From assembly GCF_028737255.1 (NCBI RefSeq), contig NZ_JAQZAN010000026.1, positions 24,301 through 48,300 on the forward strand: a stretch of DNA of 24,000 nt, in the 5' to 3' direction. Within the stretch, counting starts at the first letter, position 1. The number at the start of each line of letters is the position of its first letter. Shown piece by piece: positions 1,783 through 19,016 of the stretch. The translations under genes were made by a program, and so were the position numbers. This DNA comes from Actinomycetospora straminea. GTDB taxonomy: Bacteria; Actinomycetota; Actinomycetes; Mycobacteriales; Pseudonocardiaceae. The notes beneath the pieces are model-generated. The model ran no database searches, was not told the origin of the DNA, and saw only the letters and a program-made list of their open reading frames with translations.

Positions 1783-4290
1783 TCACGCGGACCCGAGCCG
1801 CTCCAGCACGGACGGCAGGTCACCGGGGTGCACGACGGCCAGCGAGCGCGTCGCGCGCGTCAGGGCGACGTAGAGGTCGTTGAGGCCGCGCGGAGAGGCC
1901 TCGATCACGCCCGCGGGGTCGACGAGGACGACGGCGTCGAACTCGAGGCCCTTGGCGTCGGCGACCTCGGAGACCACGATCTGGGCGCCGAGGTCCACGG
2001 CCGGATCGCCGTCCGCGGCGCCGGTCGGTCCCGCCGCGACCCCGAGGGCCGCGGCCAGCGCGTCGACCCGGGCCCCCGGGGCGAGCACCGCGACGCGGCC
2101 GGCGCCCTCGGCGTCGACGACGGCCGCGCGGGCCTCCCGCGCCTGGGCCACGGCGGCGTCGACCAGCCCGGCCTCGTCGGTGGGGACGGCCCGCGGCGCC
2201 AGCCCCGACTCGCGGACCGACTCCGGCGGGCGCGCGCCCGGGTCGATCGCGGCGAGCACGTCGGCCGCGACGGCCATGATCTCCGCGGGTGTCCGGTAGT
2301 TGACCGTGAGCACCTCGCGGCGCCAGCGGGCCGCGACGTACGGCGAGAGCACCTCGGCCCACGACGACGCCCCGCCGCGCGCCCCGGTCTGCGCGACGTC
2401 GCCGACCAGCGTCATCGAGCGGCTGGGACAGCGGCGCATGAGCACCCGCCAGGCCATCGGCGAGAGCTCCTGGGCCTCGTCGACGATGACGTGCCCGAAC
2501 GTCCAGGTGCGGTCGTCGGCGGCGCGCTCGGCCGCCGAGGCGTAGGTCGCCTCGCGGGTGCGGTCGGCGAGCACGCTGGCGTCGACGACGTCGGTGGGGC
2601 GCAGCAGCTCGGGGTCCCAGTCCTCCTCCATCGCCAGGATCTCGAGCACGCCCGCGGCGTAGGCCTCGTCGGCCTCGCGCTTGCGCTCCTCCGCCTCGCG
2701 GGCGGCGGTGTCGTCCTCGCCGAGCAGCTCGGCGACCTCGTCGAGCAGCACCGCGTCCGCGGGGCTCCACCAGGCGCCGTCGAGCAGGTCGGCGGGCGGC
2801 GCACCGGCGCGGGCGAGCAGGTCGCGGTCGGCGTCGGACCAGCCGCGCGTCACGGCGCGCAGGCGGCGCGGGGAGGTGAACAGGTCGGCGAGCAGCTGCG
2901 GGGGCGTCAGCGTCGGCCACAGCTCGTCGAGCACCGCGCGCAGGTCGGGGTCGGCGCGCAGGCCGGCCCGCACGTCGGCGAGGTCGCCGCGGTCGAGGAG
3001 GTTCGAGCGCCCGTCGAGATCGCGACCCACCCGCTCGACCTCGCGGCGGGCGAGCTGGTCGACCACCTCGCGCACGAAGGTCCGCTTGGCGTCGTTGTGC
3101 GGGCGACGGGTGCGCCGGGCGCGGGTGCGGGCCTGGGCGACGACGTCGCGGTCGACGACCACCGGCTCGCCGTCCACCACGAGCCGGATCGGCTGGCGGG
3201 GCAGCTCCTGGCGGTCGCGCACCGCGTTCGACAGCACCTTGCTCATGTCCGTGCGGCCCTTGAGCGCCGCCGCGGCCGGCGCCTCGGGACGGTGCGCGGC
3301 GAGGCCCGGGTAGAGCTCGCCGACCGTCGAGAGCAGCACGCTCGTCTCGCCCAGCGAGGGCAGGACCTGCTCGATGTAGCGCAGGAACGTCGGGTTGGGC
3401 CCGACGACGAGCACGCCGCGGCGGGCCAGCTGACGGCGGTGCGTGTAGAGCAGGTACGCCGCGCGGTGCAGCGCGACCGCCGTCTTGCCCGTCCCCGGCC
3501 CGCCCTCGACGACGACGACGCCGTTGGCGCTGGAGCGGATGACCCGGTCCTGCTCGCCCTGGATGGTCGCGACGATGTCGCCCATGCGTCCCGTGCGCCC
3601 CGCCGAGAGGGCCGCGAGCAGCACCGCCTCGCCGGTCAGCCCCGTCCGCTGGGTGGCGCGTGACGCGGCGGCCGCTGCTGCTTCGTCGAGGTCGAGGATC
3701 TCGTCGTCCACGGCCGTGACGCGCCGGCTGCGCGAGCGGATGTGGCGGCGGCGGGTCACGCCGTCCGGCGACGCGGCGGTCGCGGTGTAGTACGGCCGGG
3801 CCGCCGGGGCGCGCCAGTCGACGAGCAGCGGCTCGTAGTCGTGCGCGTCGTCGAGCAGCCCGAGGCGCCCGACGTAGAGGACGTCCTGGTCGAGCCCCTC
3901 GATCGGGCCCGGGTCGCCGTCCACGGGCGGGGGCGGCGGCCGGTCGGGATCGAGGTCGAGGCGCCCGAAGCACAGGCCCTGCTCGACGGCCGACAGCGTC
4001 GCGAGCTGCTCGGAGTACATCTGCGCGGCGGCGTCACGCTCGGACACCGCCTGGGGCGTGCCGGTGGTCTCCTCGCGCAGCACGCGGGCGAGCAGGGCGG
4101 CCGTCTCGGCGCGCCGCTCGTCGAGCTTGCCGTAGAGCATCGTGACGTAGGGCTGCTCGGTGGCGACGGGGTCGGCGCCGGGATCCGGCGGGTCGCCGCG
4201 CGCGGTGTCGGCGGCGGACGGGGACGTACGGGTCACGCGGGCCTTCTCCAGCGGACGGTCCGGCGTCGGTGTGCCGGGACGACCATTCAC
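1783..4290 (-). CDS. helD: HelD-type (helicase IV-like SF1/UvrD fold) RNA-polymerase-associated ATPase
   Basis: The N-terminal region reads EQPYVTMLYGKLDE...LYVGRLGL...LVDWRAPAARPYYTAT, typical of HelD. Walker A is VVVEGGPGTGKTAVALHRAAYLL. The C-terminal SF1 motifs are HVIVDEAQELSP, LTVNYRTP, KGLEFDAVVLVDP and LYVALTRATRSLAVV. The start is uncertain: GTG at 4290, or GTG at 4236, which is preceded by GGAGAAGG. Confidence 0.85.
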   Translation of the reverse strand: MNGRPGTPTPDRPLEKARVTRTSPSAADTARGDPPDPGADPVATEQPYVTMLYGKLDERRAETAALLARVLREETTGTPQAVSERDAAAQMYSEQLATLSAVEQGLCFGRLDLDPDRPPPPPVDGDPGPIEGLDQDVLYVGRLGLLDDAHDYEPLLVDWRAPAARPYYTATAASPDGVTRRRHIRSRSRRVTAVDDEILDLDEAAAAAASRATQRTGLTGEAVLLAALSAGRTGRMGDIVATIQGEQDRVIRSSANGVVVVEGGPGTGKTAVALHRAAYLLYTHRRQLARRGVLVVGPNPTFLRYIEQVLPSLGETSVLLSTVGELYPGLAAHRPEAPAAAALKGRTDMSKVLSNAVRDRQELPRQPIRLVVDGEPVVVDRDVVAQARTRARRTRRPHNDAKRTFVREVVDQLARREVERVGRDLDGRSNLLDRGDLADVRAGLRADPDLRAVLDELWPTLTPPQLLADLFTSPRRLRAVTRGWSDADRDLLARAGAPPADLLDGAWWSPADAVLLDEVAELLGEDDTAAREAEERKREADEAYAAGVLEILAMEEDWDPELLRPTDVVDASVLADRTREATYASAAERAADDRTWTFGHVIVDEAQELSPMAWRVLMRRCPSRSMTLVGDVAQTGARGGASSWAEVLSPYVAARWRREVLTVNYRTPAEIMAVAADVLAAIDPGARPPESVRESGLAPRAVPTDEAGLVDAAVAQAREARAAVVDAEGAGRVAVLAPGARVDALAAALGVAAGPTGAADGDPAVDLGAQIVVSEVADAKGLEFDAVVLVDPAGVIEASPRGLNDLYVALTRATRSLAVVHPGDLPSVLERLGSA

Positions 4291-4332
4291 GGTAGCGCCG
4301 CCCCCCGACGTCGCGCCGCCGAGTGGCCCACC

Positions 4333-5379
4333 TCAGACGGGGTGGTTGCGCGCCACCCCGTCGTCGTCGGCGGCCCGCGTGATCCGCTCCTGGGCGACGA
4401 GCACCTCGAGGTGGGCGTCGGTCTCGAGCACCGCGAGCATGCGATTGAAGGTCTCCAGCTCGTCGAGCCGCAGCTCACGGCGGGTCCAGCGCAGGGCCAC
4501 GGCGATCTCGGCGGCCGTCGTCATCCCCTTCTCCACGGCCGCGGCGATCTCGTCGAGGCGCCGGTCGTGGTGGAGCAGCAGCTCGTCGACCCGCGCGTGC
4601 ACGCTCGGCGCGACCGGCCCGTGGGCGGGCAGCAGCAGGCGGTCGGGTTCGGCGCGCAGGGCCGCGAGCGACGCCAGGTACCGGATGAGCGCGCCCGGTT
4701 TCGCCGCCGGCTCGAAGCCGATCGAGGGCGTGATGTGGGGCAGGACGTGGTCGCCGGCGAACAGCATCGGGCCGTCGGCGACGGTCCCGTCGACGTACAC
4801 CAGGTGCCCGCGGGTGTGGCCCGGCGTTTCGCGGGCGACCAGCGAGCGTCCGCCGGCGAGCAGCTCCTGGCCGTCGACGAGCCACTCGTCCGGGTCGGCG
4901 AAGTCCTCCACCGGCGGCGCCTCGGCGTCGGCGAGCCAGGCCAGGACGGTGTCGGCGAGGTCGGCGGCGCCCGCCCGCTGCAGGCCCGCGACCTGGGCCT
5001 GCATCCCCGTGTCGCGGCCCCGGACCTCCCGCAGCGACTCGGCCTCGCCCGCCCCGAGCGCCACCCGGCCGCCGTGGGCCCGGCGCAGCGCGATCGCCTG
5101 GCTGTAGTGGTCGCGGTGCACGTGGGTCACGAGGAAGCGCCGCACGTCGCCCGGCTCGGCGCCGAGCTCGCCCAGCAGGCGGCGCAGCACGTCGCGGGAG
5201 GCGTCGATGGCCCAGCCGCCGTCGACGAGCGTGAGGTCGTCGGCGCCCCCGTCGGGGGTCAGCGCGTAGACGTTGACGGCGCGCAGCGCGTCGCTGGGCA
5301 GCGGCAACGGCAGGCGATGGACGCCGGGCGCGACGGTCTCGAGCTCGGGCCTGGTCCAGGCGTGCCGGTCGGAGATCAC
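4333..5379 (-). CDS. MBL-fold metallo-hydrolase
   Basis: The HxHxDH motif is present (LVTHVHRDHYSQA), with later His/Asp ligands (ETPGHTRGH, FAGDHVL). GTG start at 5379 overlaps the upstream stop as GTGA. Confidence 0.85.
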   Translation of the reverse strand: MISDRHAWTRPELETVAPGVHRLPLPLPSDALRAVNVYALTPDGGADDLTLVDGGWAIDASRDVLRRLLGELGAEPGDVRRFLVTHVHRDHYSQAIALRRAHGGRVALGAGEAESLREVRGRDTGMQAQVAGLQRAGAADLADTVLAWLADAEAPPVEDFADPDEWLVDGQELLAGGRSLVARETPGHTRGHLVYVDGTVADGPMLFAGDHVLPHITPSIGFEPAAKPGALIRYLASLAALRAEPDRLLLPAHGPVAPSVHARVDELLLHHDRRLDEIAAAVEKGMTTAAEIAVALRWTRRELRLDELETFNRMLAVLETDAHLEVLVAQERITRAADDDGVARNHPV

Positions 5380-6098
5380 TCCCCGGAGGATGCCCCTGCC
5401 CCGGCACCCGCCGCCGCGTGGGGGTCGCTGACGCCCTCGCGGGCCGCCCGGGCCTCGGCACGGCGCGCGCCCGCGACACCGAAGTGGTCACCGCCCTTGC
5501 GGCGCGCGTCGTCGGTGCCCCAGGAGCGCTTGCGGTCCACCGGGACCATCCGCGGGATGTGCTTGCGGCAGTGGATGTAGGCCTCCTCGACGGTGACCTC
5601 GACCCACACGTCCGCCTTCCGGCCCGGCACCGACTCCTCGGGCAGGTCGGGGTGCGCGCTGCGCAGGAGCACGTCGTCGACGAGGCGCGCCGAGCCGTTG
5701 ACGTGCAGCCCGATGAGCTCGTCGGTGAAGTCGACCATGAGCAACCCCACGTGCGGGTTCTCGGTGATGTTGCCCAGGCTCGCCATGACGCCGTTGCCGC
5801 GGTACTCCGGCCAGGCCAGGTGCCGGTCGTCGAGCACCCGCAGGAACCCGGGCGGTCCCGCGCGCAGCGTGGAGTCGCACTCGCCGTGCGCGTCCGACGT
5901 CGCCACGAACGCCATCGACATGCGCGCCACGAACTCCTGCATGGCCGGGACGAGCCGGTCGCACATCTGGTCGGCGTGGAACCGCTCGGCGCGGTCCGAC
6001 GTGCCGAGCGCGTCCTGCAGGACGTGCTCACCGGCGGAGCCCGGGCGCTCGGGGTGGGGGTCGGGCTGATCGGGCTGGGGGGTGACCCGGTCGCTCAT
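5376..6098 (-). CDS. Pyridoxamine 5'-phosphate oxidase-like FMN-binding split-barrel protein
   Basis: MAFVATSDAHGECDSTLRAGPPGFLRVLDDRHLAWPEYRGNGVMASLGNITENPHVGLLMVDF matches the PNPOx-related flavoprotein pattern. ATG at 6098 is preceded by GGAGAGG 6 nt upstream. The track start at 6188 adds a Pro/Arg-rich extension that I do not trust. Confidence 0.75.
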   Translation of the reverse strand: MSDRVTPQPDQPDPHPERPGSAGEHVLQDALGTSDRAERFHADQMCDRLVPAMQEFVARMSMAFVATSDAHGECDSTLRAGPPGFLRVLDDRHLAWPEYRGNGVMASLGNITENPHVGLLMVDFTDELIGLHVNGSARLVDDVLLRSAHPDLPEESVPGRKADVWVEVTVEEAYIHCRKHIPRMVPVDRKRSWGTDDARRKGGDHFGVAGARRAEARAAREGVSDPHAAAGAGAGASSGE

Positions 6099-6682: not shown

Positions 6683-7399
6683 ATGTCCCGACACCGTGCG
6701 GCGCCCGCCCGAGCGGCGACGCCTCCCCCGACCGACCCCACGCTGCACGCGGCCGAGCCGCACCCGTCCGGGCCGCTCCCCCGCTCCGGGCGCCGGGCCG
6801 AGCCCCACCCGTCCGGGCCGCTCCCCCGCGCCCGGCGCCGGGCCGAGCCCCACCCCTCCGGGCCGCTCCCCCGCGCCCGGCGCCGGGGCCCCGACGAGCC
6901 CGACACCGCCGCGCTCGACCTCGCGGCCATCGCGCTCGCGGCCGCCGGCGCCCGTCAGGCCGGGCTGCCGGCCACCGGGACCTCGCCCGCCACTGGGGCG
7001 ACCGCCGTCCCGCGCACGACCGCCGACGACCCGGCGGGCCGCACCGCCGGCCCCGTCACGGGCGGCACGCCGCGTCCGGCGTACCCGGCCGCCGTCCCGA
7101 GCGCGCTCGCGCCCGTCACGCCGTCGCACCCGCTGCCCGCGGTGGCGCGCGACCCCGGTCGACGCACGGCCCTGCCGACCCGCACCGCCGGGGCCCTCGC
7201 CCTGGTCGGCGCGCTGGCGGGCGGCGGCGTCGCCGTGATCGGCGGGAGCGCCGTGCTCGCGGCCGACCCCACGCCGGCCTCGGTCGACCTCGCGCCCGAG
7301 GTGGCCAGCGCGGCCGCGAACGCCGCCGTGCCGGCCGACGAGCCCGCCGAGCCCGCCGAGCCGCCCGCCGACGCGGTCCTCGACCTCGGCGGCTACTGA
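6683..7399 (+). CDS. Hypothetical single-pass membrane protein with three tandem 15-aa repeats
   Basis: G/C third positions are near-saturated across the frame. ATG at 6683 has GGAGA 6 nt upstream. The N-terminus MSRHRAAP resembles many actinobacterial envelope proteins. The repeat unit is AEPHPSGPLPR(S/A)(G/R)RR x3. The TM segment is ALALVGALAGGGVAVIGGSAVLAA, and the acidic C-terminal tail ends ...DEPAEPAEPPADAVLDLGGY. A strong hairpin lies 9 nt after the stop. No known domain was recognised. Confidence 0.55.
   Translation: MSRHRAAPARAATPPPTDPTLHAAEPHPSGPLPRSGRRAEPHPSGPLPRARRRAEPHPSGPLPRARRRGPDEPDTAALDLAAIALAAAGARQAGLPATGTSPATGATAVPRTTADDPAGRTAGPVTGGTPRPAYPAAVPSALAPVTPSHPLPAVARDPGRRTALPTRTAGALALVGALAGGGVAVIGGSAVLAADPTPASVDLAPEVASAAANAAVPADEPAEPAEPPADAVLDLGGY
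6752..6886 (+). repeat. 45-bp tandem repeat x3 inside the 6683-7399 CDS
   Basis: Units lie at 6752-6796, 6797-6841 and 6842-6886. Unit 1 versus unit 2 has 3 mismatches, and unit 2 versus unit 3 has 1 synonymous mismatch. The units are in frame (15 codons each). Confidence 0.9.
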
Positions 7400-7786: not shown

Positions 7787-8099
7787 CGCGGTGTCTCCCC
7801 TCTCTGTGGTGCGGGGTCGTCGCGGCAGGACCGCGACGTCGGTCGGACCGGTCGCACAGACGGTCACACGGACGGTCGGTCGACACCGCACGCCACGCCG
7901 CGACGGCTGCCGCGATCCGGACGCCCGGGCCGATGGTTGCGGGACGGTACACCAGCTCGCCGAGCACCCCGCCCCTGACCTGGGCGGATCAGCGAGCGAC
8001 CGCCACCGGTGACCGCGCGGCGGGCGCGCGATCACCCACCCGCGCCTCCCCCTTCCCGCGCGTGATCGCCCGGTCCCCCACCGGGCGAGGGGGCTGCGC

Positions 8100-8732
8100 T
8101 CAGCGACGGGGACGTGACGCCCGGTACACGATCGCCGGCGGCAGGTTCCGCCACACCACCGGCGACGTCTCGACGTCCGCGAAGCAGTCGCCGAGCTCCT
8201 CGCGCAGCGCCCGTGCCGGGGCCGCCCACGCGGTGGCGCAGTACGCGAACTGCACGAACACCCCGTCGTCGGTCAGGGCGCGGGCGACGACGGGCAGCAG
8301 GGAGTCCTCCCGGCCCGGCCGCGTCGCCGACCACCCCAGGCCGCTGACCACGGCGTGCGCGCCCCGGATGTCCCGCAGCGCCAGGAGCGCGCCCAGCTCG
8401 GCGACGTCCGCGGGCACGACCTCGACGCCGCCGAAGCGCTCGGCGAGACGGTGCGCGAGCACCGGGTTGATCTCGACGGCGAGCTGGCGACCCCGCCCGG
8501 CGAGGCGCTGGGTGAGCAGGCCGGTGAACGCCCCGCTGCCGGCCCCGAGCTCGACGACCACCGGGTCGGCGGGCGCGGTGCGCAGCGCCGCGTCGGCCAT
8601 GCCGCGGGCGAGGGCGGTGCTGCTCGGCCACACCGACGCCGTCGCGACGGGGGCGCGGACGAACTGCGCGGCGAACACCGCGCGGTCGGCGAGCGACGCC
8701 TCGCGGGGCGCGGGGGTGTCCTCAGGCGACAT
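8100..8732 (-). CDS. Small class I SAM-dependent methyltransferase resembling phospholipid N-methyltransferases (COG3963-like)
   Basis: FAAQFVRAPVATASVWPSSTALARGMA followed by VVELGAGSGAFTGLL (SAM motif I) matches my memory of the N-terminal signature of the small phospholipid N-methyltransferase/rRNA-dimethylase-like family. ATG at 8732 lies 8 nt upstream of the preceding gene's stop, giving an 11-nt overlap. Confidence 0.7.
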   Translation of the reverse strand: MSPEDTPAPREASLADRAVFAAQFVRAPVATASVWPSSTALARGMADAALRTAPADPVVVELGAGSGAFTGLLTQRLAGRGRQLAVEINPVLAHRLAERFGGVEVVPADVAELGALLALRDIRGAHAVVSGLGWSATRPGREDSLLPVVARALTDDGVFVQFAYCATAWAAPARALREELGDCFADVETSPVVWRNLPPAIVYRASRPRR

Positions 8733-9648
8733 GCTCGAGCTCCGGGGTCGTGGGGAGCGGGGTCGGCGCGCGCCGGGCCGCCGGGTGCCCGAGGGGGTCG
8801 GGCGGCAGCACCGCGGCGACGGCGTCGGCGCAACCGCGCGCGAGGGCGCGGCGCGCGTCGGCGCGGGCGCGGCCGGCGGGCAGGGTGGTCGTGTCGACGA
8901 TCGCGCAGGTGGTGACGTCGACGACGACGTCCGGGACGGCCAGCACGCGGAGCAGGGACGCGGCGAGGGTGTCGTCGCCGATGAAGGCGGCGGTGGCGTC
9001 GACGCCGCGGCCGTCGCCGGTGAGGCGCCCGTAGCGCACCGCCACCGGCACGACCGGGGCGCCGGCCTCGTACGCGGCCTGGAAGGCGGCCGGCCGGAAC
9101 GGGCCGAGGTCACGTCCGCAGCGGGTGGTGCCCTCGGCGAACACGCCGACGGGGGTGCCGGCCCGCAGGGCGTCGGCGAGGCCCGCGACCGCACCGGGCA
9201 GGTCGCGCAGCCGGTCGCGGTCGAGGAAGACCGTGCCGGCGCGGGCGGCCATGATCCCGAGCACCGGCCACTGCCGGACCTCGGTCTTCGCGAGCATCCG
9301 CACGGGGGCCACGGCGTGCAGCGCGAAGACGTCGAGCCAGGAGACGTGGTTGGCGACGACGAGCGCGCCGGGCGGCACGGGTGGGATCGCCGGCCCCCGG
9401 TGGCGCACGTGCACCCCGCAGGCCGACAGCACCGCGGCCGCCCAGACGCGCTGGACGGCCGCCGTCACCGACGGACCGAGCAGCGGCCCCACGAGCGCCG
9501 CGACGAGGCCCACGAGCAGCACCACGAGGAGCGCCGAGCCCCGCACGACCAGGCGGATCGCCCGCCGCACGCGGGCCGCCCGGCTCCCGGGCGGGACCAC
9601 CGGCAGGCAGCCCGGACCGCACGGCGACGTCGGTGACCAGGCGTTCAC
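8722..9648 (-). CDS. olsA: PlsC-family lysolipid O-acyltransferase (OlsA-like)
   Basis: The acyltransferase motifs are NHVSWLDV (HX4D) and FAEGTT. An N-terminal TM segment is present (LLVVLLVGLVAALVGPLLG). GTG at 9648 overlaps the upstream stop as GTGA. The symbol is based on pairing with the OlsB-like gene, not on biochemistry. Confidence 0.8.
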   Translation of the reverse strand: MNAWSPTSPCGPGCLPVVPPGSRAARVRRAIRLVVRGSALLVVLLVGLVAALVGPLLGPSVTAAVQRVWAAAVLSACGVHVRHRGPAIPPVPPGALVVANHVSWLDVFALHAVAPVRMLAKTEVRQWPVLGIMAARAGTVFLDRDRLRDLPGAVAGLADALRAGTPVGVFAEGTTRCGRDLGPFRPAAFQAAYEAGAPVVPVAVRYGRLTGDGRGVDATAAFIGDDTLAASLLRVLAVPDVVVDVTTCAIVDTTTLPAGRARADARRALARGCADAVAAVLPPDPLGHPAARRAPTPLPTTPELEHVA

Positions 9649-10556
9649 CCGGCCTCCCCGAAGAGGTAGCGGCGCCACCGCGGGTCGATGGCGGTGTGGT
9701 CGAGCAGCACGAACAGGTCGGCGACGCCGAAGTCGGGGTCGAGGGCCGGCGCGCCGCCGATCTCGGCGCCGAGGCGCAGGTAGCCGCGCAGCAGCGGCGG
9801 CAGGCCGGCGACGGCGGCCCTGCGGGCACCGGGCGCCTCGGGGTCGTGGTCGGCGATCGGGGCCTCGCGCCACGGGCGCACCCGCCGTGCGGCCGGGGCG
9901 AGGTGCTGGGAGGCGACGAGCGACCAGACGCCGCCGGGCATCGCGCCCGCCGGGGTGAGCGGCACGCTCGCGCACCCGACGACCCACCGGTGCCCGGTCA
10001 GCACCATGTAGCGGCCGATCCCGGCCCAGACCAGCGAGAGCACGACGCCGTGGCGGTGGGCGGGGTGCACGCAGGAGCGCCCGACCTCGACGATCTCGTC
10101 GCGCAGCGGCGCGAGCGCGGTGAGGTCGAACTCGGTGTCGGAGTAGAGGCTGCCGGCCGCGCGGGCCCCGTCCGGCGTGAGCATCCGGTAGGTGCCGACG
10201 ATCTCGCCGGTCGCGTCCTCGCGGACGACGAGGTGGTCGCAGTGGGCGTCGAAGGCGTCGGCGTCGCGGCCCTCGGCGGCCGCGGTCAGCGCGACCGTGT
10301 CGTCGGCGGCGGGACGGGCCCCCTGCTCGACGGCGAACACCGCGTGGCGCAGCCGCTGCGCGGCGGCGACGTGGGTGGGCTCGCGCGTGAGCAGCAGGCT
10401 GTAGCGACCGGCGGCGTCGGACGCGGCGTCGCCGGCCGTGTCCGCCCCGACGACGACCGGGGCGGGCCCGGTGGGCGGCGCGGGCTCCGCCGCGCGCTCG
10501 TCCTGGGTCTCGGGAGCGGGTCCGACCGACCGCGCCAGCACCTGGGATGTGGCCAT
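9645..10556 (-). CDS. olsB: OlsB-like GNAT N-acyltransferase (N-acyl amino acid / lyso-ornithine-lipid synthase family)
   Basis: RYSLLLTREPTHVAAAQRLRHAVFAVEQGA...GTYRMLTP...YSDTEFDL...VEVGRSCVHPAHR...PPLLRGYLRLGAEIGGAPALDPDFGVADLFVLLD matches the OlsB/hemolysin-like Acetyltransf_5 pattern. ATG at 10556 has no strong SD. An N-terminal Ala/Pro extension of about 50 aa makes the exact start uncertain. Confidence 0.75.
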   Translation of the reverse strand: MATSQVLARSVGPAPETQDERAAEPAPPTGPAPVVVGADTAGDAASDAAGRYSLLLTREPTHVAAAQRLRHAVFAVEQGARPAADDTVALTAAAEGRDADAFDAHCDHLVVREDATGEIVGTYRMLTPDGARAAGSLYSDTEFDLTALAPLRDEIVEVGRSCVHPAHRHGVVLSLVWAGIGRYMVLTGHRWVVGCASVPLTPAGAMPGGVWSLVASQHLAPAARRVRPWREAPIADHDPEAPGARRAAVAGLPPLLRGYLRLGAEIGGAPALDPDFGVADLFVLLDHTAIDPRWRRYLFGEAG

Positions 10557-10607
10557 GGCCCGGTGTCTACGGTCCGAGATCGCCCGGGGGCCCACCCCGG
10601 CGTGACC

Positions 10608-10629
10608 GTCGAGTGTGGTCCCGGTGAAC
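10608..10629 (-). promoter_or_regulatory. PHO-box-like direct repeat units upstream of olsB-like gene
   Basis: The minus strand reads GTTCACCGGGA-CCACACTCGAC. The first 11-mer fits my recollection of the PhoP unit G(G/T)TCAYYYR(G/C)G at 9 of 11 positions, and the second is weak. It starts 73 nt upstream of the ATG at 10556. Confidence 0.2.
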
Positions 10630-10650
10630 TCGCATGTGCGCTCCGAGCAG

Positions 10651-10690
10651 GTGAGCAGAAAGGCGTGCTCCAGCACTCTTTTCTGCTCAC
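10651..10690 (-). terminator. Low-GC 11-bp-stem hairpin between the GT4 gene and the olsB-like gene (terminator or attenuator/operator)
   Basis: GTGAGCAGAAA-ggcGTGCtccaGCACtct-TTTCTGCTCAC has 11-bp perfect outer arms plus a 4-bp inner stem. It lies 16 nt past the GT4 stop at 10707. No U tract follows on the minus strand. Confidence 0.4.
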
Positions 10691-10706
10691 GAGCCCGCAG
10701 GGCACC

Positions 10707-11864
10707 TCAGGCCGCCGGCGTGGCCACCGGCGTGCCCTCCTCGGTCCGGTCGCCGGTCATGACCGCGGTGTAGTGCCCGAGCAGCTCCTCGCAGATCGAG
10801 GGCCAGGTCCGGCCGAGCACGCGGCGGCGGCCGGCCGCGCCGAAGGCCGCGCGCGCGTCGGGGTCGTCGCGCCACGCCGCGACCCGCCCGACGATCTCGG
10901 CGCCGGCGGTGGGCGAGGTGGGGTCGTAGAGCCAGCCGGTGCGGCCCGGCTCGACGAGGTCGGCGACGCCGCCCGCGTCCGGCGCGAGCACCGGCAGCCC
11001 GGAGGCCTGGGCCTCCTGGACGGCCTGGCAGAAGGTCTCGTGCGGGCCGGTGTGCACGAAGGCGTCGAACGAGGCGTAGGCGCGGGCGAGCTCGGTGCCG
11101 CCGCGGAAGCCCAGGAAGTGCGCCGACGGCAGCAGCTCGCCGAGACGGTGGCGCGAGGGCCCGTCACCGACGACGACCACCCGCACGCCCGGCAGCCCCT
11201 CGAGCGCGGCGAGGCGTTCGACCTGCTTCTCCGGCGCGAGCCGCCCCACGTACCCGACGAGCACCTCGCCGCCGGGCGCGAGCTCGGCGCGCAGGGCGTC
11301 GTCGCGGCGCCCGGGGTGGAAGCGGGCGGTGTCGACCCCGCGCCCCCAGCGGTGCACGCGCGGCACACCGTGGGCGCGCAGCGTGTCGACCGCCCACCGC
11401 GACGGCGCGAGCGTGCGCGAGGCCCCGCCGTGCAGCCGGCGGATCCAGCGCCAGGCGGCCCGCGCGGTCAGCCCGATGCCGTACGACGCGGCGAACCCGG
11501 CGACGTCGGTCTGGTAGACGGCGATCGCGGGCACGCCCATCCGCCGGGCCACGGTCAGCGCCCGCGCGCCCAGGACGAACGGGGACGCGAGGTGCACGAC
11601 GTCGGGCCGGTACTCCTCCAGCGCCGCGCGGACCGCCGGCGTCGGCACCCCGATCGGCAGCGAGTCGACGACCGGCAGGTCGACCGACGGCACCCGCACC
11701 ACCGGCACGTGCGGGGCGCCGGGCACCTCGTCCGGGCCGGCCCCGGGCGCGATGACCATCGCGGAGTGGCCACGGCGCTGCAGGTGGGCGACGACCTGGA
11801 GCACGGAGTTGGTGACGCCGTTGACGGCGGGGAGGAACGACTCGGTCACGACGGCGACGCGCAC
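10707..11864 (-). CDS. GT4-family glycosyltransferase (MgtA/PimB-like lipid mannosyltransferase type)
   Basis: RVAVVTESFLPAVNGVTNSVLQVVAHLQRRGH closely resembles the N-terminus of the mycobacterial/corynebacterial MgtA/PimB-type enzymes. The C-terminal motif reads HTGPHETFCQAVQEAQASGLPVLAPDAGG (EX7E-type). I prefer the GTG start at 11864. The track start at 11927 adds an Arg-rich extension. Confidence 0.85.
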   Translation of the reverse strand: MRVAVVTESFLPAVNGVTNSVLQVVAHLQRRGHSAMVIAPGAGPDEVPGAPHVPVVRVPSVDLPVVDSLPIGVPTPAVRAALEEYRPDVVHLASPFVLGARALTVARRMGVPAIAVYQTDVAGFAASYGIGLTARAAWRWIRRLHGGASRTLAPSRWAVDTLRAHGVPRVHRWGRGVDTARFHPGRRDDALRAELAPGGEVLVGYVGRLAPEKQVERLAALEGLPGVRVVVVGDGPSRHRLGELLPSAHFLGFRGGTELARAYASFDAFVHTGPHETFCQAVQEAQASGLPVLAPDAGGVADLVEPGRTGWLYDPTSPTAGAEIVGRVAAWRDDPDARAAFGAAGRRRVLGRTWPSICEELLGHYTAVMTGDRTEEGTPVATPAA

Positions 11865-12124
11865 GACCGCACCGTGGCCGCCCCAGGGCCACGAGGGCCG
11901 ACGACGACGTGTCCCTCGTCCTAACACCGACCCAACACTGTGGTCGCCGCCGGCCCGGGCCCCGGCGCACGGTTCCTCGCCGACGAGATCGTGGTCACCG
12001 ACGGTCAGACCGGACCCGGAGGATCTCGAGTCGCCCGGCGTGTCGCGCCGGCGGACCCCGGCGTGTCGACCACGGTCGGTCGATCTGCGTGCGAACGCTG
12101 CGCGTGTCGGGCGATCCTGTCGTG

Positions 12125-13069: not shown

Positions 13070-13395
13070 TCGGCCCCCGGGCCCCTCGGCACGCGGACCG
13101 CTCACCTCGACCCCCGGCGGCCTGGTCGCACCGAACGGAGCAGCTCTGGACGCCCCTCACTACTCCGTTCGCCGCCCGACGCCCTCGGGCGACCACTCAC
13201 CGCGACACCAGCGCGTTCGCCGGTCACGGCTCGTCACGAAAGGTCTCGGTTCGGTTACGGTCCCTGACAGCGCCGTCCCGCTCCCCAGCACGACCCGGGC
13301 GGCGGACGGGGCCGCCCGGCGGGGTCCCACCCCGCCCCCGCGCCCGCCCACCTGGACGACATCCGAGACGAACCCCCGAACGAATCGGAGCCCCG

Positions 13396-13779
13396 ATGTC
13401 TGGTCGCCACGCCATGCCCACCGCCCCCTCCCGCCCCCTGCTGCGCGCCGGCGTCGTCGCCGCGGCCGCGGTCACCGGCCCGCTCGCCATCAGCGGCACC
13501 GCGATGGCCGCGCCGTCGGTCTCCCCCGACTCCAACGCCACCTGGGACCGCCTCGCCATGTGCGAGAGCACCCAGAACTGGGAGGCCGACACCGGCAACG
13601 GCTTCAAGGGCGGCCTGCAGTTCACCGAGTCCACCTGGGAGGAGTTCGGCGGCGAGCGCTTCGCCTCCTCCCCCGACCAGGCCAGCCGCGAGGAGCAAAT
13701 CCGCGTGGCCAAGAAGGTCCAGGACGAGCAGGGCTGGAACGCCTGGCCCACCTGCTCGGAGAAGCTCGGACTGCAGTAG
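13396..13779 (+). CDS. rpf: Resuscitation-promoting factor (Rpf transglycosylase-like domain), secreted, domain-only form
   Basis: WDRLAMCESTQNWEADTGNGFKGGLQFTESTWEEFGG...ASREEQIRVAKKVQDEQGWNAWPTCSEKLGL matches the Rpf domain, including the catalytic CES Glu and both Cys residues. The signal peptide is ...AAAAVTGPLAISGTAMA/AP. ATG at 13396 has GGAG 5 nt upstream. Confidence 0.9.
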   Translation: MSGRHAMPTAPSRPLLRAGVVAAAAVTGPLAISGTAMAAPSVSPDSNATWDRLAMCESTQNWEADTGNGFKGGLQFTESTWEEFGGERFASSPDQASREEQIRVAKKVQDEQGWNAWPTCSEKLGLQ

Positions 13780-15806: not shown

Positions 15807-16130
15807 TCAGGCCGCGGGGGTGTCGCGGCCGGCGTGCTCGCGACGGGCGTCACGGCGACGGCGGGCGAGGAGCGTGCGGCGCTCGTCCTCGCTCTCCCCG
15901 CCCCACACGCCGTAGGGCTCCTCCACCGTCCGGGCCCACTCGCGGCAGGGCGCGAGGACCGGGCAGCCCGCGCAGATCTCCTTCGCGCGGGCGACCCGGC
16001 GTTGCCGCGAGGGGTCCCGCTCGCCCTCCGGGTGGAAGAACACCGCGAGATCCATGTCGCGACAGGCCGCGCGGCGCTGCCAGTCCCAGTGCTCCACGAT
16101 CGCGGCCGGTAGGCGCGACACGTCCGCCAC
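15807..16130 (-). CDS. whiB: WhiB-family (Wbl) Fe-S transcription factor, WhiB3/WhiD-like
   Basis: WDWQRRAACRDMDLAVFFHPEGERD...AKEICAGCPVLAPCREWA...EPYGVWGGESEDERR carries the four Cys residues (C-Xn-C-X2-C-X5-C) and the GVWGG turn. I prefer the GTG start at 16130, which has AGGAGG 8 nt upstream. The track start at 16139 overlaps that SD. Confidence 0.9.
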   Translation of the reverse strand: MADVSRLPAAIVEHWDWQRRAACRDMDLAVFFHPEGERDPSRQRRVARAKEICAGCPVLAPCREWARTVEEPYGVWGGESEDERRTLLARRRRDARREHAGRDTPAA

Positions 16131-16383
16131 GGCAACCACCTCCTACAGCTTGTCGTAGGGGGCGCATACCCCCGGGGGCGGTGTCACACCCGGACCGGCC
16201 GGAGATCGGCGGTGGCGGCATCCGCTGCGCCCGGGGTCCCCCTCGGCGCCGCGCCCACACCACCGTCGGCACCCGGTGCTGTGTCCACCGTCATCCGCGG
16301 AGGTGTGCCGCGATCCGCCACCGACCCGTCGACGGGCCGCGGGCGCGATCTCCGTCCCGCGGGCGATCAGCGCGGCCGCGGCG

Positions 16384-17909: not shown

Positions 17910-17951
17910 CGTGCGTGATCTTCTGAGCTGTGGCTCGGAAGATCACGCACG
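17910..17951. terminator. Bidirectional hairpin between convergent AKR and esterase genes
   Basis: CGTGCGTGATCTTC-tGAGCtgtgGCTCg-GAAGATCACGCACG has 14-bp perfect arms plus a 4-bp inner stem. The right arm overlaps the esterase stop codon at 17943-17945. Confidence 0.65.
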
Positions 17952-19016
17952 ACGGGTCGCCTCCTCGCGGGTCGTCAGGGCGACCCCGGCGCGCAGGGAC
18001 GAGGCGGCGTCGAGGATCGCGTCCCGCGCCGTCGGGACGACGCCGGCCAGGCCCGCGTAACCGTGCACCAGCCCGGGGAAGCGGCGGAACGCGACCGGCA
18101 CGCCGGCGGCGCGCAGCGCCACGACGAGCTCCTCCCCCTCGTCGCGCAGCGGGTCGAACCCGGCCGTCGAGACGTAGCAGGGCGGCATGATCCCGAGGTC
18201 GTCGACCTCGAGCAGACCGGTCGCCCGGATCGGCTCGATCCCGTCGGGCAGGTAGTAGCGCTCGAAGACCTCGATGTCGACGGTGCGCAGCCCGAAGCCC
18301 TCCGCGAACAGCTCCCGCGAGCCGCCCGCGCGCCCCGCGTCGGTGACCGGGTACATCGCCAGGACGAACGCCGGGGACTCGCCGCGGCGCCGGGTGAGCT
18401 GGTGGGCGGCGGTGAGGGCGAGGTTGGCGCCCGCCGAGTCGCCGCCCGTGGCCACGGCCGTCGCCCGGAAGTCCTCGCGGTGGGTCAGGACGTGGTGCAG
18501 CGCCGACGCCGCGTCGGCCAGTCCGGCCGGGAACGGGTGCTCGGGCGCCAGTCGGTACTCCACCGACAGCACCCGCACCGCGGCCTGGTGGGCGAGCACG
18601 CGGCACAGGGGCTCGCTCGAGACGAGGCTGCCCAGCGCGAACCCGCCGCCGTGGAAGTGCACGAGCAGCGGCGCGTCCCGGTCGGCCACCTCCGCCGGCG
18701 TGTAGAGCCGGGCGGCGAGCGTGCCGGGCTCCTCGCGGCCGGGCCCCGCGTCCACCGGGATCGCCACGTCCTCCGCCGCGACCCCGGGCGTGGCCGACCA
18801 CGCGAGGCCGGCCGCGCGGTCGGTGGCCGCGCGCTGCTCGTCCAGCGGGGGCTCCTCCCCGCCGGCGACGAGGCCGAGCAGGCGGATGACGACCTGGACG
18901 TCGAGGTCGAGGGTCTGCCCGTCGCGGTGGACCGGGGGACCGGCGATGAGCCGGCGGGCGGGGCGCGGCAGCGCGATGATGGCGCGCAGGACGCGCCGGA
19001 GGGCACCGAACATCAC
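17943..19016 (-). CDS. Alpha/beta hydrolase, hormone-sensitive-lipase-type esterase/lipase
   Basis: The oxyanion motif is HFHGGGFALGS, the nucleophile elbow is GGDSAGANLA, and the C-terminal catalytic His context is FPGLVHGY. The start is GTG at 19016 or the adjacent ATG at 19013. Confidence 0.85.
   Translation of the reverse strand: MMFGALRRVLRAIIALPRPARRLIAGPPVHRDGQTLDLDVQVVIRLLGLVAGGEEPPLDEQRAATDRAAGLAWSATPGVAAEDVAIPVDAGPGREEPGTLAARLYTPAEVADRDAPLLVHFHGGGFALGSLVSSEPLCRVLAHQAAVRVLSVEYRLAPEHPFPAGLADAASALHHVLTHREDFRATAVATGGDSAGANLALTAAHQLTRRRGESPAFVLAMYPVTDAGRAGGSRELFAEGFGLRTVDIEVFERYYLPDGIEPIRATGLLEVDDLGIMPPCYVSTAGFDPLRDEGEELVVALRAAGVPVAFRRFPGLVHGYAGLAGVVPTARDAILDAASSLRAGVALTTREEATRRA

Follow-up and report, generated by a model that had tools for sequence, protein, structure and literature searches.

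Gene organization of the locus

The window, a stretch of 24,000 nt of the Actinomycetospora straminea genome (contig NZ_JAQZAN010000026.1, positions 24,301 to 48,300; G+C content ~77%), contains four genes arranged head to tail on the minus strand, as an earlier note drawn up from the sequence alone had claimed. From upstream to downstream, they encode a GT4 glycosyltransferase (10707-11864), an OlsB-like protein of 303 amino acids (aa) (9645-10556), an OlsA-like protein of 308 aa with a GTG start (8722-9648) and a predicted S-adenosylmethionine (SAM)-dependent lipid head-group N-methyltransferase of 210 aa with an ATG start (8100-8732), hereafter referred to as the MT. The OlsB-like protein is predicted to be an ornithine N-acyltransferase forming lyso-ornithine lipid, which the OlsA-like protein, a predicted PlsC-type O-acyltransferase, would convert into ornithine lipid. 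The subject of this analysis is the olsB-olsA-MT operon and the methylated ornithine lipid that it may produce.

The GTG start codon of olsA (9648-9646) overlaps the TGA stop codon of olsB (9647-9645) in the tetranucleotide GTGA at 9645-9648. The ATG of the MT gene (8732-8730) is located 8 nt ahead of the olsA stop codon TGA (8724-8722), giving an overlap of 11 nt, and is preceded by a GGAG Shine-Dalgarno sequence. Both overlaps are exactly as the earlier note had described them. The genes olsB, olsA and MT form a genuine translationally coupled unit. The GT4 gene was considered as a further member of this unit and excluded, because a spacer of ~150 nt holding a hairpin and a conserved promoter-like region parts it from olsB; only the last three genes are coupled.

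Conservation and origin of the operon

A profile built from 22 members of the MT family yielded 80 loci from species-representative genomes, which were searched with the proteins of the window. All eight loci of the Actinomycetospora type (L001-L008) have GT4, olsB, olsA and the MT gene in the same order. The other 72 loci, referred to here as unlinked, come from Pseudonocardia, Saccharopolyspora, Nonomuraea, Micromonospora, Dactylosporangium, Streptomyces and others, with MTs 40-53% identical to the window MT. The coupling of olsB, olsA and MT is limited to one clade (MT identity of at least 59%) and is present in all 11 clade loci examined, namely the window, L001-L008, L086 and L087. Alignment of nine genomes (the window and L001-L008) showed that the (A/G)TGA junction between olsB and olsA, the 11-nt overlap between olsA and MT and the GGAG Shine-Dalgarno sequence are invariant; the alignment also makes the conserved ATG at 10556 a likelier start of olsB than the first GTG at 10676. 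L086 and L087, two short metagenome contigs with the most divergent MTs of the clade (60% and 63% identity), have the exact 11-nt overlap as well, with mIHF downstream. Preservation of the overlaps in nine Actinomycetospora-type genomes and in two more distant metagenome contigs indicates that they did not arise by chance. The conserved block extends genus-wide over genes for a flavin adenine dinucleotide (FAD) enzyme, Methyltransf_19, GT4, OlsB, OlsA, MT, mIHF, PNPOx, MBL and a helicase.

Outside the clade, olsBA is found in different surroundings. The olsBA genes of Pseudonocardia and Saccharothrix (OlsB identity ~55-60%) lie in the mycobacterial-type context etfB-etfA-olsB-olsA-(iscS)-mnmA, as in Mycobacterium tuberculosis, with an Rv3030-3032-like methyltransferase, GH57 and GT4 further upstream of etfBA-olsBA, and no Pmt-like gene is present in these contexts. 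The olsBA genes of Streptomyces fradiae have yet another context. No second Actinomycetospora OlsB was found among the best 120 matches. The MT homologues from Verrucomicrobia (L030) and Vicinamibacteria (L064) have no ornithine-lipid genes in their contexts. Since the olsBA contexts elsewhere are without MT and the MT orthologues are located elsewhere, both partners were relocated and joined in the ancestor of the clade. Judged from these gene orders, the olsB-olsA-MT operon is a new assembly of the ancestor of the Actinomycetospora clade.

The Pseudonocardia olsBA neighborhood (L081, 1-2583) resembles Rv3024c-Rv3032 and comprises GT4/GT5, GH57, a class I methyltransferase, etfBA, olsBA, a cysteine desulfurase and mnmA. 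Within the stretch read, the Saccharothrix locus (L082, 1-334) shows the methyltransferase-etfBA-olsBA-desulfurase-mnmA part of the same arrangement. This mycobacterial-type arrangement of olsBA is lost in Actinomycetospora.

Identity of the encoded enzymes

The MT is best matched in NCBIfam by the OlsG model (NF041658; 79.3 bits, 3e-22), which aligns almost over its full length (model positions 2-184 of 191). The second model is that of Agrobacterium PmtA (33.1 bits, 3.6e-8), below its cut-off of 250. The Erm and KsgA rRNA methylase models score ~1e-5, and Pfam gives weak generic methyltransferase matches only. The AlphaFold (AF2) model of the MT (pLDDT, the predicted local-distance confidence, of 87.7) was compared with solved structures using Foldseek; the closest is A. 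tumefaciens PmtA (9KO3), with a best TM-score to the target of 0.78. Similarly, a profile of the MT family searched against the PDB places 9KO3 far ahead at 8.5e-17, with KsgA and Dim1 at ~1e-4. Thus, the resemblance of the N terminus to small phospholipid N-methyltransferases pointed out in the earlier note is borne out, and the comparison with rRNA dimethylases that it had proposed places the MT on the Pmt/OlsG side by hidden Markov model (HMM) scores. The quoted motifs are present in the translation (WPSSTALARGM and VVELGAGSG). Within the SAM motif VVELGAGSG, Glu61, Gly63, Gly65 and Gly67 are conserved across the family together with the second acidic residue Glu87. Sinorhizobium-type Pmts, which are homologous to rRNA methylases, have the motif VL(E/D)XGXGXG with essential Glu/Gly residues and a second acidic residue (PMC3972451). 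The MT retains the residues essential in PmtA. The family comprises 7392 clusters at 50% identity (E ≤ 0.001), and the best 150 cluster representatives listed all have E < 1e-46. By profile, fold and motif comparison, the MT is a member of the Sinorhizobium-type Pmt/OlsG superfamily.

The MT is 100% identical to a protein of A. straminea, and its closest relatives (65-93% identical) are all from Actinomycetospora or metagenome contigs. The host thus belongs to the Pseudonocardiaceae, and a streptomycete as the source was rejected. Outside the clade, identity is highest to the members in Pseudonocardia (54%) and Saccharopolyspora (51%), compared with 56-60% among the other Pseudonocardiaceae. 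These values fit vertical inheritance of an orthologue that has changed at a modestly raised rate.

The OlsB-like protein matches the complete Acetyltransf_5 domain (PF13444, positions 1-102 of 102; E = 1.5e-32, 112.7 bits), and two OlsB models rank best in NCBIfam (150.9 and 144.9 bits). These models were built on proteobacterial clades, and the scores are below their equivalog cut-offs of 350 and 320. The protein is 54-60% identical to the OlsB orthologues of Pseudonocardia, Saccharothrix and Streptomyces, which show the same olsB-olsA pairing and belong with the ornithine-lipid-making SCO0921 of Streptomyces coelicolor. The synthesis of lyso-ornithine lipid from ornithine and 3-hydroxyacyl-ACP is established for SCO0921 and for proteobacterial enzymes. 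The OlsA-like protein matches PF01553 (9.4e-27) and carries the HX4D (HVSWLD) and EGT (AEGT) motifs. Its best NCBIfam models are OlsA models (115.8 and 109.6 bits), whose equivalog cut-off of 300 is not reached, and it clears the domain cut-off of TIGR00530 (110.3 vs. 102.95 bits). The OlsB-type and PlsC-type assignments made in the earlier note are in agreement with these matches. None of the three lipid enzymes attains an NCBIfam equivalog cut-off.

The GT4 open reading frame is open to 11927, and the GTG at 11864 yields a typical N terminus (MRVAVVTESF). The protein matches PF13439 (8.6e-26) and PF00534 (5.8e-22). Its best NCBIfam model is the GpgS-type GlcNAc-phosphatidylglycerol synthase of Pseudomonas (NF053787), at 159 bits vs. 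a cut-off of 480, a score that suggests only a GT4 resembling a lipid-directed enzyme. The partner genes gpgD (deacetylase) and gpgF (flippase) were not found near GT4. GT4 is located upstream of olsB in all eight Actinomycetospora-type loci. The glycolipid theme that had been attached to this gene is not supported for the operon: GT4 is uncoupled from it and scores well short of the GpgS cut-off. The theme is a reasonable guess about a neighboring gene. In L007, from a metagenome-assembled genome of an uncultured Actinomycetota, the GT4 and olsB frames appear to join without a stop codon (2779-4983), either as a real fusion or as an assembly or frameshift artefact.

Clade-specific substitutions in the methyltransferase

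Comparison of the nine linked MTs with the 72 unlinked MTs showed eight substitutions that all or nearly all members of the linked clade share, at sites 86-100% conserved elsewhere. These are P64A and T66S (ELGPGTG to ELGAGSG), I73L, Q74A/T, A110V, P133G (SGLPW to SGLGW), T160V and R175A. The Pmt motif S-x-(L/V)-P-(W/M/F), which follows strand 4, is replaced by SGLGW in the window MT. The sequence SGLGW is present in 69/69 clade proteins, and the motif proline is kept in 159 of the 162 other family members. Among the 150 cluster representatives, 84 have SGLPW and one only has SGLGW. PmtA of A. tumefaciens reads SAVPM at the aligned position, with the proline kept. We take the SGLPW motif, by its position in the general fold, to be the (N/D/S)-x-P-(Y/F/W) motif of amino-methyltransferases. 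Within the clade, conservation of the MT (67-84%) exceeds that of OlsA (56-68%). Together with the intact SAM-binding residues, this makes the changes look like altered constraint on the protein rather than decay.

Upstream region of olsB

The gap of ~150 nt between GT4 and olsB contains a PHO-box-like element on the minus strand (10597-10630), in which three direct repeat units with the cores GTTCAC, CCACAC and GGTCAC follow each other at exact 11-nt spacing. The cores (G/A)TTCAC, xCACAC and xGTCAC (10602-10628) are conserved in the nine genomes aligned. A repeat pattern of three units occurs once in the window vs. 0.04 times expected by chance. In actinomycetes, the PHO box has the form of 11-nt direct repeats with a GTTCAC core. 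The element agrees with the pattern used to recognize a PHO box, namely at least two 11-nt units that precede the -10 region and have a core resembling GTTCAC. The olsBA operon of Streptomyces (sco0921-20) is activated by PhoP and has putative Pho boxes (PMC7937720). An invariant 12-mer, CCGTAGACACCG (10561-10572, minus strand), ends 4 nt before the olsB ATG and is identical in the nine genomes; it contains a candidate -10 element (TAGACA) with a presumed promoter role. The olsB ATG has no Shine-Dalgarno sequence ahead of it. A promoter and terminator scan with the E. coli-type sigma-70 model found nothing, this model being uninformative at 78% GC. This region is probably a phosphate-starvation promoter, from which olsB-olsA-MT would be transcribed with a short leader or none.

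Past the GT4 stop and ahead of the olsB promoter region is a perfect inverted repeat of 11 bp, GTGAGCAGAAA-N18-TTTCTGCTCAC (10651-10690, minus strand). The RNA fold of 10640-10706 has an energy of -35.6 kcal/mol (z = -3.6), and none of 200 shuffled sequences was equally stable. The repeat is an insertion seen in A. straminea only, being absent from the eight other loci, and it further parts GT4 from the operon. It is a candidate terminator without a T-tract or insulator for GT4, or a candidate operator.

A methylated ornithine lipid as the proposed product

The favored reading is that the MT methylates ornithine lipid, with or without additional methylation of phosphatidylethanolamine (PE); its probability is put at roughly 45%. 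In this reading, olsB, olsA and MT would be expressed as one transcription and translation unit from their own promoter, probably induced by phosphate starvation. OlsB would N-acylate ornithine with a 3-hydroxy fatty acid, and OlsA would esterify a second fatty acid to give ornithine lipid. The MT, a peripheral-membrane enzyme descended from a phospholipid N-methyltransferase of Pseudonocardiaceae, would then add one to three methyl groups to the free delta-amino group of this lipid, yielding a phosphorus-free lipid similar to phosphatidylcholine (PC) in a genus with a PC-rich normal membrane. The MT may additionally still methylate PE; OlsG accepts both ornithine lipid and PE (PMC12971839), so that dual specificity has a precedent in the Pmt/OlsG superfamily. 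The ornithine head group, the control by PhoP, the acceptor of the methyl groups and how many of them are transferred are what we infer for this pathway. A tentative account of its origin is that the Actinomycetospora ancestor captured a PC-forming MT into a relocated, PhoP-controlled olsBA operon and retuned it, including the change from SGLPW to SGLGW, so that mono-, di- or trimethyl-ornithine lipid would replace PC under phosphate starvation. The de novo fusion, the clade-wide coupling, the clade-confined substitutions at otherwise fixed sites, the starvation-type promoter and the precedent of OlsG make the favored reading plausible.

Several observations weigh against methylation of ornithine lipid. 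The conservation of the gene neighborhood, which had been proposed as a check, is kept throughout one genus-level clade and does not extend further: olsB, olsA or GT4 is within 6 kb of the MT homologue in none of the 72 unlinked loci, and three further actinomycete MT homologues are also without olsBA linkage (0/75 in total). The score of the MT with the OlsG model, 79.3 bits, is far from the equivalog cut-off of 350. OlsG is also the best and PmtA the second model for all ten unlinked homologues scanned (77-128 and 40-72 bits), and the window MT ranks low with both models (79 and 33 bits), indicating that the resemblance to OlsG is family-wide. The PHO-box reading is based on pattern and conservation, and the binding of PhoP to the element is presumed. 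The homologue searches showed one copy of the MT family per Actinomycetospora species. The diagnostic phospholipid of Actinomycetospora is PC. In rhizobia and Agrobacterium, a Sinorhizobium-type PmtA occurs alongside ornithine lipids, and to our knowledge a methylated ornithine lipid has not been reported from them. The coexistence of PmtA and ornithine lipids in these bacteria is documented (PMC3972451), and the polar-lipid patterns of Pseudonocardiaceae include PC (PMC6113628).

These points lead to the foremost rival explanation, in which the MT is the phospholipid N-methyltransferase of the genus, converting PE into monomethyl-PE (MMPE), dimethyl-PE (DMPE) and PC, and is merely co-transcribed with olsBA in a general membrane-lipid locus while the ornithine lipid stays unmethylated. 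This explanation is possible and has to be taken seriously, though it is not the one preferred. The single copy seen and the presence of PC in the genus suggest that the MT may be needed simply for the step from PE to PC. Members of the MT family are found in genera known for PC or methyl-PE. The family members of Pseudonocardia (54% identity) and Saccharopolyspora (51% identity), which stand alone in genera reported to have PC, appear to be orthologous to the MT, and the family is otherwise unlinked to olsBA. Close homologues are annotated by pipelines as PE or phosphatidyl-N-methylethanolamine (PME) N-methyltransferase, and among solved structures PmtA comes closest. Experiments have established CinL/Cinorf10 as a PE monomethyltransferase of an actinomycete (PMC5408092), and many loci of the MT family adjoin a cinKR-like HisKA_3/NarL pair. 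However, a function restricted to phospholipids leaves unexplained why both olsBA and MT were relocated and their 11-nt overlap kept clade-wide, and why near-invariant residues, including the motif proline, changed in this clade only. Moreover, a phosphate-starvation promoter would induce PE methylation while phospholipid is being spared, an objection that hinges on the putative PHO box.

It is unlikely that the MT acts on another acceptor produced by the locus, such as lyso-ornithine lipid only, another amino-acid lipid of the lysine or glutamine type made by OlsB, or an amino-glycolipid derived from GT4. The head group of aminolipids made by OlsB homologues can differ from ornithine (PMC12971839), the NCBIfam scores of OlsB and OlsA are well below the equivalog cut-offs, and the GT4 conserved beside the operon has an amino-sugar phospholipid synthase as its best model. 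However, the window OlsB has orthologues at 54-60% identity that group with SCO0921, the enzyme behind ornithine lipid in S. coelicolor, the hairpin and the promoter-like region part GT4 from the operon, and a deacetylase partner is not present. A non-lipid rRNA or protein methyltransferase placed after olsA by chance is highly improbable: the weak Erm and KsgA matches and the homology of Sinorhizobium-type Pmts to rRNA methylases (PMC3972451) are outweighed by the far better, full-length scores of the OlsG and PmtA models, by the PDB profile search and by the clade-wide conservation of the coupling, and an identity of the MT as an rRNA methylase was rejected on the HMM scores and the profile search.

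Methylation of ornithine lipid would be new for this group of bacteria. A 2026 review of ornithine lipids lists N-methylation for planctomycetes only, via OlsG (PMC12971839), in agreement with the earlier note. No report of trimethylornithine lipid or another methylated ornithine lipid from an actinomycete was found in the literature covered by a full-text search. An olsBA operon with an embedded Pmt/OlsG-type methyltransferase appears to be new, and its methylated-lipid product is a prediction. If the prediction is true, an N-methylated ornithine lipid would be known for the first time outside Planctomycetes and for the first time via the OlsBA route, extending this class of lipids to Gram-positive bacteria and to the classical pathway. 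The operon, which comes from a cultivable genus, would then provide a compact cassette for zwitterionic, phosphorus-free, PC-like lipids in heterologous hosts. It would also represent a natural experiment on the change of lipid acceptor in a phospholipid N-methyltransferase, with candidate specificity residues pinpointed. If the MT instead converts PE into PC, the locus would identify the PC-forming enzyme of PC-containing actinomycetes, a useful and unsurprising result.

Other features of the window

Several genes around the operon have no obvious tie to it. A Methyltransf_19 (PF04672) SAM methyltransferase gene at 11909/12200-13069 (plus strand) is divergent from GT4. Further away are an Rpf-type transglycosylase-like gene (13351-13779, plus strand), a WhiB-family regulator gene (15807-16139, minus strand) and an Abhydrolase_3 esterase/lipase gene (17943-19016, minus strand). 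The intergenic stretch of 1.3 kb between the PNPOx-like gene and mIHF contains a 45-bp tandem repeat of three near-perfect copies (6751-6887, 95% matches), which is spanned by a Pro/Arg-rich open reading frame (6683-7399, plus strand) without a Pfam match. Across related species, this spacer measures between ~1.3 and 2.4 kb.

Comparison with known systems

OlsG of the planctomycete Singulisphaera acidiphila (Sinac_1600) methylates ornithine lipid and also converts PE into PC (PMC12971839). The MT belongs to the same superfamily, has OlsG as its best curated model with a near-full-length alignment and is likewise located inside an ornithine-lipid synthesis operon, here as the third gene. However, OlsG is encoded in a GH3-type olsH-olsG-olsI operon of a planctomycete without olsBA, whereas the partners of the MT are olsBA genes of an actinomycete. 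The difference between the 79 bits of the window MT and the OlsG cut-off also separates the two, and the resemblance is common to the unlinked homologues. PmtA of A. tumefaciens (Atu0300; 9KO3 and 9KO5) shares with the MT the SAM motif VL(E/D)XGXGXG and the small size (~22 kDa). It differs in its sequence (22% identity to the window MT, with 33 bits vs. a model cut-off of 250), in the proline of SAVPM that is a glycine in the window MT, and in that pmtA is a stand-alone, constitutively expressed gene (PMC3972451).

CinL/Cinorf10, a PE monomethyltransferase that confers immunity to cinnamycin-type lantibiotics (PMC5408092), and the related KyaL and DurL resemble the MT family as actinomycete lipid N-methyltransferases (226-236 aa) under the control of an adjacent kinase and regulator. 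A layout of HisKA_3 kinase, NarL-type regulator and MT is present in 22 of the 72 unlinked loci and also in L084 (10650-12571) and L088 (2135-4032). However, the window MT is without a two-component neighbor. CinL may belong to the MT family, although no S. cinnamoneus protein was found among the best 120 matches to a Streptomyces family member and a cinnamycin-type precursor motif is absent from all 80 loci. The HisKA_3/NarL-MT loci may represent orphan lantibiotic-resistance modules in Micromonosporaceae, Streptosporangiaceae and some Streptomyces. The HisKA_3/NarL (GerE) pair is usually divergent, lies around 3300-6000 of the loci and shows the same layout as cinK-cinR-cinL (L013, L016, L018, L019, L024, L032, L036, L037, L047-L049, L053-L055, L058, L060-L062, L067, L070 and L073).

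Other neighbors of unlinked homologues were also observed. In L085 (Streptomyces sp. NPDC002536), the MT gene (10001-10585) shares 8 nt with the end of a gene for an MmpL-type (PF03176) transporter (7804-10008), another lipid-related coupling. In Streptosporangiaceae loci, a gene read by its motifs as CDP-alcohol phosphatidyltransferase-like (~190 aa) is located one to four genes from the MT; such a gene lies upstream of the MT in L018, L037, L061, L062, L069, L071, L073 and L074. These Streptosporangiaceae loci also have a nucleotidyltransferase/phosphomutase fusion of ~830 aa near the MT and an acyl-CoA dehydrogenase-like gene after it.

The olsBA operon of S. coelicolor and S. lividans (SCO0921-SCO0920), which is needed for ornithine lipid, has the same olsB-olsA order with overlapping genes, and the Streptomyces OlsB is 58% identical to that of the window. 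It differs in consisting of two genes, with no head-group methyltransferase attached. In S. fradiae, the gene after olsBA is a convergent Methyltransf_33 gene of an unrelated cluster of the ergothioneine type. The betaine-lipid (diacylglyceryl-trimethylhomoserine, DGTS) system BtaA/BtaB of Rhodobacter and Sinorhizobium is a phosphate-starvation operon, in which a SAM-dependent N-methyltransferase adds three methyl groups to an amino-acid head group and thereby creates a phosphorus-free PC surrogate. BtaA/BtaB builds on a diacylglycerol-homoserine backbone and uses an unrelated synthase; its analogy to the proposed methylated ornithine lipid of Actinomycetospora is one of logic.

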